Below are positions 14,866-54,705 of a stretch of DNA of 64,000 nucleotides, one piece after another. This stretch comes from Escherichia coli (GTDB lineage Bacteria > Pseudomonadota > Gammaproteobacteria > Enterobacterales > Enterobacteriaceae): the NCBI RefSeq assembly GCF_041886205.1, contig NZ_CP169029.1. The stretch is one strand, 5' to 3'. The notes beneath the pieces were generated by a model. The model saw only the letters and a program-made list of their open reading frames with translations. It was not told where the DNA came from and searched no databases. The stretch's first letter is position 1. Each line of letters begins with the position of its first letter. The position numbers and the translations under genes were made by a program.

Positions 14866-14941
14866 TGGCTCCTCTGACTGGACTCGAACCAGTGACATAC
14901 GGATTAACAGTCCGCCGTTCTACCGACTGAACTACAGAGGA
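14866..14941 (-). tRNA. asnV: tRNA-Asn (GUU)
   Basis: Reverse complement equals TCCTCTGTAGTTCAGTCGGTAGAACGGCGGACTGTTAATCCGTATGTCACTGGTTCGAGTCCAGTCAGAGGAGCCA. Confidence 0.95.
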
Positions 14942-37883: not shown

Positions 37884-38534
37884 TCAATGAGACATCATTT
37901 CCTCGACCACTTCTTCGCTACTCAACTGATATGGATAAAACGTTGGCCAGTTTTCCATTTCATTTAATAAAGATTGCTGTGAATCATTACCCATAAAAAT
38001 GTGAAAATGAGATGATTTTCGTGGTGCAATTATATGATCGCTAAATTGTATATATTTAGGGGCTTTGCTTTTAGGATCTTTACATTCGAATAAGTAACGA
38101 ACGCCTTTCTTACCTGATTTGTAAGTGAGTATTTTGTATCCATCGTAATCATATTTACAGGATGTTGTTTCATTATTTCTATGGAATTCAACAATGCCGT
38201 CCTCAATGCCAATCATCTCGATATCTGTCGCATAACCTTTGTGATAATAATCTTTAATTTCAGCAAATGTTTTGGTTTTATCTGCATCCGCTTTCTTCTG
38301 AAAGACGGGGCCAAGTTTGCCACTTTGCAGTAAAGGATAAACGGATTGCCAGACTCCATCCCAGTCACTGAGCGTTCGGTTTTGTACATTGGCATCATCA
38401 AAAACACCATTAGCAGCTTTTTGTTCGACCTCTGTTAAGGGTTTGCCGTGTGAGTGATGACCATGCGAAAAGGCAGGAGCGCTAACAATAAAGACACCTA
38501 AAGCAACAGCCAGTTTGTGAAGACGAATCGCCAA
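37884..38534 (-). CDS. zinT: Periplasmic zinc/cadmium-binding protein ZinT
   Basis: Signal peptide then HGHHSHG metal-binding stretch; probable TTG start 7 nt after GGAGG; Zur box upstream. Confidence 0.88.
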
Positions 38535-38564
38535 AACAGTTTCCTCCAGAGTCATTGTATATGA

Positions 38565-40539: not shown

Positions 40540-40953
40540 TTAACTGCCACGATAGGTTGAATACCCATATTGGCTAAGTAATAAAGGCACATGATAATGC
40601 TCGTTCACTTTATTAATATGAAATTCAACGGGGATCTCAGGGAAGAAACTTTCAAGATTTTGTTTCTTGAAATAGTCCCCGGTTTTAAATACGACACGGT
40701 AATCGCCCGTAGTTGCAGTTTGCTCGGGCCACAGTGCCTTAATTCGTCCATCCTTATCTGTTTTGGCGGTATTAAGTTGTAACCAGCCGTTATCCGCCTT
40801 CTTTTCAAGAGTGACTGTCACGTCAGCAGCGGGTTTTCCGGTTTGCTGGTTCAAAATGTGCACGCTAAGAATGTTTTGTTGTGCGGCATAAACCAAAGAA
40901 GGTAATGAAAATGCTGCCGTTGCTACCGAGAGTACTAAATAACGCTTTAACAT
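40540..40953 (-). CDS. hiuH: 5-hydroxyisourate hydrolase (transthyretin-like) HiuH
   Basis: 137 aa with signal peptide and C-terminal YRGS motif. Confidence 0.88.
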
Positions 40954-41021
40954 GTTTATATCCTTGTCATGTGAATGAGTTTTGAGGATAGCGAAAAAGC
41001 GGCCAGGGTAACCTTACAGCA

Positions 41022-41039
41022 GCATTACAATTTTGTAAT
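41022..41039. promoter_or_regulatory. HprR box palindrome in the hiuH-hprR intergenic region
   Basis: CATTACAATTTTGTAATG, perfect palindrome. Confidence 0.55.
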
Positions 41040-41085
41040 GAACCAGGCTGTTTCTATAACATATGATTTATGGCATATTATTTTC

Positions 41086-41757
41086 ATGAAGATTTTACTT
41101 ATTGAAGATAATCAAAGGACCCAGGAGTGGGTAACGCAGGGGCTTTCCGAAGCGGGTTATGTCATTGATGCCGTTTCTGATGGCAGAGATGGGCTTTATC
41201 TTGCGCTGAAGGATGATTATGCATTGATCATTCTGGATATTATGCTTCCGGGTATGGATGGCTGGCAGATCTTACAAACGTTAAGAACAGCAAAGCAAAC
41301 CCCTGTTATTTGCCTTACTGCAAGGGATTCTGTCGATGACAGAGTCAGAGGGCTGGACAGTGGAGCAAATGATTATCTGGTAAAACCTTTTTCATTTTCT
41401 GAGTTGCTGGCAAGGGTTCGGGCACAATTAAGGCAACATCACGCTTTGAATTCAACATTAGAAATCAGTGGCTTAAGAATGGACTCTGTTAGTCAAAGTG
41501 TGAGCAGGGACAATATCAGTATTACACTGACGCGCAAGGAGTTTCAGTTACTTTGGCTACTGGCCTCCAGAGCTGGCGAAATTATACCCAGAACGGTTAT
41601 TGCGAGTGAAATTTGGGGAATCAACTTTGATAGTGATACCAATACGGTGGATGTCGCCATTCGCAGGCTCCGCGCAAAAGTTGATGATCCTTTTCCTGAA
41701 AAGCTAATCGCCACAATCCGGGGGATGGGCTATTCATTCGTAGCGGTAAAAAAATAA
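41086..41757 (+). CDS. hprR: Two-component response regulator HprR (YedW), OmpR family
   Basis: 223 aa from MKILLIEDNQRTQEWV...; the track ORF's 37-codon upstream extension would include the HprR box. Confidence 0.88.
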   Translation: MKILLIEDNQRTQEWVTQGLSEAGYVIDAVSDGRDGLYLALKDDYALIILDIMLPGMDGWQILQTLRTAKQTPVICLTARDSVDDRVRGLDSGANDYLVKPFSFSELLARVRAQLRQHHALNSTLEISGLRMDSVSQSVSRDNISITLTRKEFQLLWLLASRAGEIIPRTVIASEIWGINFDSDTNTVDVAIRRLRAKVDDPFPEKLIATIRGMGYSFVAVKK

Positions 41758-43115
41758 TGAAAAGATTATCTATAACCGTCCGTTTAACCTTGCTTTTTAT
41801 ATTGCTGCTGTCTGTTGCTGGCGCTGGAATTGTATGGACTCTCTATAATGGCCTGGCAAGTGAGTTGAAATGGCGCGATGATACAACACTCATTAACCGG
41901 ACAGCGCAGATCAAGCAGTTGTTAATTGATGGGGTAAATCCAGATACGTTACCTGTGTACTTTAACCGGATGATGGATGTTAGTCAGGATATCTTGATCA
42001 TTCATGGTGATGGCATCAATAAAATTGTTAACCGGACGAATGTCAGTGATGACATGTTAAATAACATACCTGCTAGTGAGACAATCAGCGCAGCTGGCAT
42101 TTACAGAAGCATTATTAATGATACAGAGATAGATGCTTTACGAATTAATATTGATGAAGTTTCGCCATCATTAACGGTTACTGTGGCTAAATTGGCTTCA
42201 GCCAGACATAACATGCTTGAACAGTATAAAATTAATAGCATTATAATTTGCATTGTCGCCATTGTACTTTGCTCAGTATTAAGTCCGCTGTTAATCAGAA
42301 CGGGATTACGAGAGATCAAAAAGTTGAGTGGTGTAACGGAAGCGCTGAATTATAACGATAGCCGGGAGCCTGTTGAGGTTAGCGCATTACCGAGAGAACT
42401 AAAACCTCTTGGGCAGGCGTTGAATAAAATGCATCAAGCCTTAGTCAAAGATTTTGAACGCCTAAGTCAATTTGCTGACGATCTCGCTCATGAACTTAGA
42501 ACGCCCATTAATGCATTACTGGGTCAGAATCAGGTTACGCTCAGTCAAACCAGAAGTATCGCTGAATATCAAAAAACAATTGCCGGAAACATTGAAGAGC
42601 TGGAAAATATTTCGCGGTTAACAGAGAACATACTGTTTCTTGCCCGGGCAGATAAAAACAATGTTTTGGTAAAACTGGACTCGCTTTCTCTCAATAAGGA
42701 AGTCGAAAATTTGTTGGACTATCTTGAATATCTTTCAGACGAGAAAGAGATTTGCTTTAAGGTCGAGTGCAATCAGCAAATCTTTGCGGATAAAATTTTA
42801 CTGCAACGAATGCTATCGAATCTTATTGTTAATGCCATTAGATATTCACCAGAAAAATCGCGTATTCATATAACCAGTTTTCTTGATACCAACGGTTCTC
42901 TTAATATTGATATCGCCAGTCCTGGAACGAAAATACATGAGCCTGAAAAACTCTTCCGTAGATTTTGGCGGGGAGATAATTCGCGTCATTCCGTAGGTCA
43001 GGGACTTGGTCTTTCTTTAGTCAAAGCGATTGCCGAATTACACGGGGGAAGTGCTACGTATCACTATCTCAATAAGCATAATGTGTTCCGGATTACGTTA
43101 CCGCAAAGAAATTAA
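41757..43115 (+). CDS. hprS: Sensor histidine kinase HprS (YedV)
   Basis: 452 aa, two TM segments, HAMP, H-box (LAHELRTP) and ATPase motifs; start overlaps the hprR stop. Confidence 0.9.
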   Translation: MKRLSITVRLTLLFILLLSVAGAGIVWTLYNGLASELKWRDDTTLINRTAQIKQLLIDGVNPDTLPVYFNRMMDVSQDILIIHGDGINKIVNRTNVSDDMLNNIPASETISAAGIYRSIINDTEIDALRINIDEVSPSLTVTVAKLASARHNMLEQYKINSIIICIVAIVLCSVLSPLLIRTGLREIKKLSGVTEALNYNDSREPVEVSALPRELKPLGQALNKMHQALVKDFERLSQFADDLAHELRTPINALLGQNQVTLSQTRSIAEYQKTIAGNIEELENISRLTENILFLARADKNNVLVKLDSLSLNKEVENLLDYLEYLSDEKEICFKVECNQQIFADKILLQRMLSNLIVNAIRYSPEKSRIHITSFLDTNGSLNIDIASPGTKIHEPEKLFRRFWRGDNSRHSVGQGLGLSLVKAIAELHGGSATYHYLNKHNVFRITLPQRN

Positions 43116-46192: not shown

Positions 46193-46285
46193 AAAAAAAA
46201 GCCGGCATCATGCCGGCCCAAAAAATATAAACAAGACGATAAAAGGCTAATAACGGAAGCATCATGACACAGAATAATAAAAAGG
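46193..46285 (-). ncRNA. rseX: Candidate small RNA (RseX-like), defined by a minus-strand intrinsic terminator
   Basis: GCCGGCATGATGCCGGC hairpin followed by T8 on the minus strand at about 46193-46217; no ORF upstream on that strand; 5' end not determined. Confidence 0.35.
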
Positions 46286-54618: not shown

Positions 54619-54705
54619 AACACATCAGATTTCCTGGTGTAACGAATTTTTTAAGTGCTTCTTGCTTAAGCAAGTTTCATCCCGACCCCCTCAGGGTCGG
54701 GATTT
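54619..54705 (+). ncRNA. dsrA: DsrA small regulatory RNA
   Basis: AACACATCAGATTTCCTGGTGTAACGAATTTTTTAAGTGCTTCTTGCTTAAGCAAGTTTCATCCCGACCCCCTCAGGGTCGGGATTT matches my recollection of DsrA, including the terminator stem-loop. Confidence 0.9.

Follow-up and report, generated by a model that had tools for sequence, protein, structure and literature searches.

The inverted repeat in the Escherichia coli hiuH–hprR spacer is the known HprR/CusR box, and hprR starts downstream of it

Two paralogous response regulators of Escherichia coli, HprR (YedW) and CusR, have been reported to recognize the same DNA sequence. The YedW/HprR box of the spacer between hiuH and hprR is printed as CATTACAAAATTGTAATG in two papers that quote Urano et al. 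(2015/2017), PMC9302797 and bioRxiv 10.1101/2021.09.09.459708. HprR binding to this spacer has been published from gSELEX, as well as from EMSA and ChIP at the hiuH promoter. A second box, AAAATGACAANNTTGTCATTTT, lies between cusRS and cusCFBA and is recognized by both CusR and HprR. This CusR box has the same 8+2+8 architecture and likewise occupies the spacer between a regulator and its divergently transcribed target, with a half-site core of TGACA where the hiuH–hprR box has TTACA. Here, we compared these described systems with the hiuH–hprR locus of a 64,000-nucleotide stretch of E. coli DNA, referred to below as the window.

The box lies in the zinT–msrQ–msrP–hiuH (minus strand), hprR–hprS (plus strand), and hchA (minus strand) region of E. 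coli. Using the list of open reading frames and the RefSeq annotation, we placed hiuH, the first gene of the hiuH-msrPQ operon, at 40540–40953 on the minus strand. The sensor kinase gene hprS lies at 41757–43115 on the plus strand, and its start overlaps the stop codon of hprR. The hprR coding sequence itself (41086–41757, plus strand) encodes a 223-residue response regulator of the OmpR/PhoB family, as supported by RefSeq, the K-12 annotation, and Pfam domains, which include an N-terminal receiver (Response_reg, PF00072, E = 1e-27) and a C-terminal winged helix (Trans_reg_C, PF00486, E = 8e-25). The coordinates of all three genes carry over one to one to strain 120899, and the RefSeq annotation leaves a hiuH–hprR spacer of 132 bp (40954–41085).

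A 501-bp query across the site was matched in 5,415 of 5,426 complete E. coli genomes, and the features beneath it were hiuH and hprR. The allele in the window is not that of K-12. Across 301 bp it is 100% identical to BL21(DE3), and K-12-lineage genomes (e.g., MG1655_insertion and H32) are at 98.7% in the same search. Within a 161-bp comparison, K-12 MG1655 differs from the window at two positions, both outside the box. One genome, E. coli Res13-Lact-PEB21-38-A, shows a match that breaks off at 40974, ~22 bp before the hiuH ATG, where an IS1 transposase gene follows. This genome lacks the box, hprRS, hchA, and the genes beyond them as far as drpB, and its hiuH-msrPQ operon is thus stripped of the activator site.

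The sequence CATTACAATTTTGTAATG occurs a single time in the window, at 41023–41040 on the plus strand, which is within the interval 41022–41086 given for it in the original prediction. Read on the opposite strand, in the hiuH direction, it is exactly the published CATTACAAAATTGTAATG. It also sits at the published position, 87 to 70 bp before the hiuH ATG, as the first base of that ATG is 40953 and adding 70 and 87 gives 41023 and 41040. A comparison of the published operator with the repeat returned no difference, and the AA/TT discrepancy at the center is one of strand only. With an identical published box, the same distance, and the same flanking genes, the reading of this repeat as the HprR operator for hiuH-msrPQ is well founded. 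The box is invariant in the 10 E. coli chromosomal alleles examined and also in E. albertii. We conclude that the inverted repeat at 41023–41040, between the divergent hiuH-msrPQ and hprRS operons, is the known binding site common to HprR-P and its paralogue CusR.

The two 8-bp arms of the box, CATTACAA and TTGTAATG, are perfectly complementary. The central TT is not self-complementary, leaving 16 of the 18 positions symmetric. The earlier description of the box as a perfect palindrome is therefore right for the arms but not for the full 18 bp. Symmetry by itself was considered as evidence for the box and rejected, because inverted repeats with 8-bp arms are common in the window. With spacers of 0–4 nt, we found ~12 distinct repeats (17 matches listed, several of them nested), where ~6 are expected in first-order Markov simulations. 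What gives the box meaning is its exact match to the published sequence, together with where it lies and how well it is conserved, rather than its symmetry.

The frame that contains hprR is open well upstream of the annotated gene. As had been noted from the sequence, a 260-codon open reading frame (40975–41757) is present and takes in the box. Within the box itself is another in-frame ATG, at 41038, and the start that reads MKILLIEDN is the ATG at 41086. If an N-terminally extended HprR of 260 (or 239) residues were real, the box would lie inside a coding sequence. The 37 additional codons, with their ATGs at 40975 and 41038, are indeed open in all 10 of the E. coli chromosomal alleles that we examined; these alleles show few SNPs, none of them in the box, and are too little diverged for the open frame to be informative. 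Both forms of the protein are widely deposited, each on at least 1,000 contigs, the 260-residue form as “transcriptional regulatory protein YedW.”

However, the extension (40975–41085, plus strand) is non-coding sequence that spans the whole regulatory spacer. It shows no homology to any regulator in Pfam or the PDB. In the 260-residue form, residue 40 is the first of the Pfam receiver domain, and more than 50 solved OmpR-family regulators in the PDB align from residue 37–39, mostly with their own residues 1–6. In a tblastn search with one genome per species, 79 of 80 confirmed relatives align from residue 1 of the 223-residue form, and the one exception (L066) aligns from residue 2. Neither upstream ATG has a Shine-Dalgarno (SD) sequence, as the anti-SD duplex energies at 40975 and 41038 are both positive. 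Furthermore, ATG 40975 is 22 bp from the hiuH start codon and on the strand opposite the predicted hiuH 5′UTR, so transcription of the long form would require a promoter within hiuH.

The long frame is also broken in relatives that retain the regulatory motifs. In E. albertii, whose HprR is 96% identical and whose box is identical and at the same distance, the extension is stopped by a TAG 14 codons before the hprR ATG and has an AAA replacing the upstream ATG, and a 1-nt indel. In a plasmid-borne copy of the locus (L092, see below), a 1-nt deletion shifts the upstream ATG out of frame, and the box core and other motifs are kept. The open stretch upstream of hprR in other genera ranges from 2 to 127 codons. 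Curated annotation gives 223 residues from ATG 41086, both in RefSeq/PGAP and in K-12 MG1655 (NP_416478.2), and the mRNA 5′ end has been reported to lie ≤5 nt from the annotated start. We regard the extended protein as extremely improbable. hprR is translated from ATG 41086, where homology begins, and the internal MKILLIEDN start had been correctly favored in the original prediction. With hprR starting at this downstream ATG, the box falls in the space between the two divergent genes, hiuH and hprR.

The 260-codon frame is fortuitous, as the spacer in the E. coli chromosomal lineage happens to contain no stop codon. It resembles the over-extension of start codons by longest-ORF choice in automated annotation, as the 260-residue YedW likewise begins at the first ATG of an open frame. 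Unlike ordinary over-extension, the false extension of hprR takes in a whole bidirectional regulatory region, and caution is needed with the over-long YedW that is still deposited. The same longest-ORF issue is seen at zinT (37884–38555), with an open frame of 223 residues and a RefSeq protein of 216 residues (start at 38534). Separately, the 90%-identity cluster that holds the 260-residue YedW has a 452-residue HprS as its representative and mostly HprS members. This mixed cluster probably arose as an artefact of clustering, and fused or partial open reading frames may have bridged it. The box, the start codon, and the location in the spacer are all already known, and our analysis here re-derives curated knowledge, namely the published operator position and a K-12 start-codon correction made years ago.

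No SD sequence was found in the 20 nt before ATG 41086. The best anti-SD duplex there is −1.5 kcal/mol, which is weaker than the median across the window's ATG triplets (−2.6), and the values for hiuH, msrQ, and hchA are −5.2 to −7.4. cusR differs in this respect, with a leader that contains an evident SD (GGAGGAAAT ATG). A ribosome-binding site had been suggested as a check on the internal ATG, and its absence does not weaken the start codon, because the hprR mRNA is very probably leaderless. An absent SD should not be taken as evidence against a start codon where the mRNA is leaderless.

The putative hprRS promoter has an extended −10 element, TGgCATATT (TGGCATATT), at 41071–41079 on the plus strand. 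Its last base is 6 nt before A41086, and the pattern TG.CA.A.T is kept in at least 90% of 10 orthologous spacers between divergent hiuH and hprRS. This geometry puts the predicted transcription start site at or next to 41086, as expected for a start on the AUG. Transcription of hprRS from TGGCATATT would begin at the A of the AUG or at an adjacent base and would yield a leaderless mRNA that needs no SD. In a passage of a paper on kasugamycin, hprR is named among “known leaderless genes,” which are defined there by Rend-seq 5′ ends with a 5′UTR of ≤5 nt. We infer that the name hprR in that list implies the 223-residue annotation. The same published list includes the E. coli chromosomal leaderless mRNAs rhlB, rluC, racR, dicA, and cohE. 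hprR has leaderless features, with no SD and a −10 element ending 6 nt before the AUG; racR, dicA, and cohE are prophage repressors, whereas hprR is not one.

Other sources were less telling for this promoter. The TSS supplement of Romero 2014 has no entry for the hprR start, and the TSS supplement of Kim 2012 has low-count internal sites only, none of them at the hprR start. A simple sigma-70 consensus scan of 40850–41250 returned no promoter. This blank is uninformative, as both promoters are weak or activator-dependent. An extended −10 followed by an ATG is about as frequent as chance in the 64 kb, and the leaderless argument rests on the conservation of the element and on the classification in one paper.

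The same conserved TGGCA could instead be read as the −24 element of a sigma-54 promoter driving hprRS, TGGCAT-N5-TTTCA (41071–41086). The GC of the sigma-54 −12 element is near-invariant. At 41071–41086 we found GG-N10-TC instead of GG-N10-GC, and in the orthologues TGGCA is conserved but the −12 element is not. An RpoN-holoenzyme gSELEX peak (31–33% intensity) has been reported in the yedW/hiuH spacer. However, the window contains no more sigma-54 matches this good than chance predicts (44 found, 44 expected). Transcription from such a promoter would begin ~10 nt into the coding sequence and give a transcript without the start codon. We consider a sigma-54 promoter very improbable and favor the extended −10 element with a start at the AUG.

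Published qRT-PCR data show that HOCl raises hiuH ~1,500-fold, msrP ~60-fold, and yedW/yedV ~20-fold. Induction by H2O2 was much smaller (~2-fold for yedW/yedV) and, according to the authors, did not occur for the tested genes when yedW was deleted (ΔyedW). In two further papers, this spacer is said to mediate autoregulation of hprRS by HprR or up-regulation of HprR by itself. The proposal of an autoregulatory site in the divergent intergenic region agrees with these reports. The term “operator” does not hold in its repressor sense, as this is a positive, activator site and hprRS is induced by HOCl. The box is a bidirectional activator site giving positive feedback, not a repressor operator.

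HprR-P bound at the box would strongly activate hiuH-msrPQ and would activate hprRS more weakly, with positive feedback as the result. On the hiuH side, we predict a −10 hexamer TATCCT at 40985–40990 on the minus strand (TATAAC in most orthologues) from an invariant TA in the alignment. The hiuH SD, AAGGAT, is at 40960–40965 on the minus strand, with an anti-SD duplex of −5.2 kcal/mol and a conserved ctcc island. From these elements, the box center (41031.5) would lie at about −54.5 from the leaderless start at 41086 and at about −53.5 from a hiuH start near 40978. Motif positions underlie three predictions here, namely where exactly hiuH transcription starts, the −54 geometry, and what the third half-site described below does. 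The box and the hprR start are spaced differently in E. coli and in other genera, by 4 bp, and this speaks against a strict geometry of activation on the hprR side.

A repressor-type operator with negative autoregulation could act, for example, through an alternative promoter made up of TTGTAA (41033–41038) and TATAAC (41055–41060). These hexamers, 16 nt apart, match the sigma-70 consensus at 9 of 12 positions and overlap the box, whose right arm would serve as the −35. The K-12 annotation also terms HprR a “dual regulator.” However, yedW/yedV mRNA rises rather than falls, both with HOCl (~20-fold) and with H2O2 (~2-fold), and hprR/S have been published as co-induced with hiuH in constitutive cusS mutants. 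The TATAAC hexamer is without the conserved final T, was missed by the sigma-70 scan, and is conserved in Escherichia only. We find repression of hprRS from this site very improbable. An mRNA from this alternative promoter (41033–41060) would have a 19-nt leader without an SD. We hold with high confidence the explanation as a whole, in which a known shared HprR/CusR site activates in both directions, hprR starts at ATG 41086, and hprRS is leaderless.

We also compared the locus across genera. hiuH and hprRS are divergent in nine other Enterobacterales genomes (L002–L010), and msrPQ follows hiuH only in E. albertii. In L003–L010, no msrPQ was found after hiuH within the 2.5-kb flank. It has been published that Salmonella CopRS, which adjoins hiuH, does not control msrP, and this is consistent with the gene order in L003–L010. 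A box-like repeat, ATKACA-N4-TGTMAT, is kept in nine of the nine spacers, starting 62–67 bp before the hprR ATG, in surroundings that have diverged.

The order is different in six Morganellaceae genomes (L011–L016; Proteus, Providencia, Morganella, and Moellerella), where hprR, hprS, and msrP follow each other on one strand. Here, a perfect ATGACAANNTTGTCAT lies between hprS and msrP, 87–173 bp before the msrP ATG and ~2034–2060 bp past the hprR start. Nothing box-like was found upstream of hprR in the six genomes. In these sequence comparisons, the box tracks the target gene, hiuH or msrP, and not the regulator gene. Autoregulation in Escherichia follows from the divergent gene order and does not account for the presence of the site. 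An autoregulatory site had been said to belong beside hprR; autoregulation itself stands, but across genera the placement follows the target. Unlike E. coli hprR, the Morganellaceae hprR genes have a purine-rich, SD-like sequence before the start (e.g., AGAGGA in Proteus), and their mRNA is probably leadered.

A diverged second copy of the locus, with msrQ-msrP-hiuH divergent from hprR-hprS, was found on plasmid pFHI_NMBU_03_1 (77702–85983; L092). Such plasmid copies occur on ~160-kb plasmids in several E. coli strains, with ccdAB and an integrase adjoining in the one plasmid examined. The spacer of the L092 copy is an 88% match to that of E. albertii, and its hprS is annotated as frameshifted.

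Additionally, we observed a putative third half-site next to the box. It reads CTGTAA on the hiuH strand (41014–41019, minus strand), lies in a conserved island, CCT.ACAG, and adjoins the predicted hiuH −35. In E. coli, CTGTAA starts exactly 11 bp past the proximal TTGTAA arm, and the whole repeat is TTGTAAtgctgCTGTAA. We looked for this half-site (yTGTmAG) in 21 HprR/CusR/SilR-type promoters from the window, L002–L016, L083, L092, and L095. It was present on the target-gene side in 20 of the 21 and on the other side in none. The 20 positives are 11 hiuH promoters (including the plasmid copy), six msrP promoters, K-12 cusC, and plasmid silC and silE; pcoA was negative. In most promoters, the half-site ends 21–22 nt before the −10 hexamer. 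At cus, the third half-site is CTGTCAC, 11 bp past the proximal arm and 22 nt before the target-side −10, as at hiuH.

This arrangement resembles the pho box. PhoB, a member of the same OmpR/PhoB family as HprR, binds a pho box of tandem CTGTCAT repeats with an 11-bp period, and this type of tandem repeat is the canonical head-to-tail site of OmpR/PhoB regulators. The proximal arm and the third half-site together read TTGTmAT-N4-yTGTmAG, an 11-bp direct repeat beside the −35 region, and have the TGTCA core in common with the pho box. The pho box is nearer the −10 and replaces the −35, whereas the HprR element has an extra inverted distal arm and ends ~22 nt before the −10.

Judging from these motifs, the full HprR/CusR element may be longer than the 18-bp box by half again, with the third half-site, one helical turn past the proximal arm, making up the missing third, but we put this forward tentatively and think it rather doubtful. 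If true, it could explain how the OmpR/PhoB family uses a seemingly palindromic site and how a single box drives hiuH ~75 times more strongly than hprRS. The asymmetry of the third half-site fits the far stronger induction of hiuH. It would also refine the model of HprR/CusR/SilR DNA recognition and promoter directionality. A full-text search, with the primary footprint papers outside its range, found no description of a direct repeat or third half-site in CusR boxes, and the third half-site is the sole item of this analysis that might be new.

A few other features of the window were noted. Rfam placed two small RNAs in it, DsrA (54619–54705, plus strand) and RseX (46194–46283, minus strand), together with five tRNAs at 14869, 17278, 19099, 35287, and 36351, which are four tRNA-Asn and one tRNA-Ser by the reference annotation. 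Upstream of ~35 kb, collinearity between the window and strain 120899 is lost, and that strain has extra IS/island material there.
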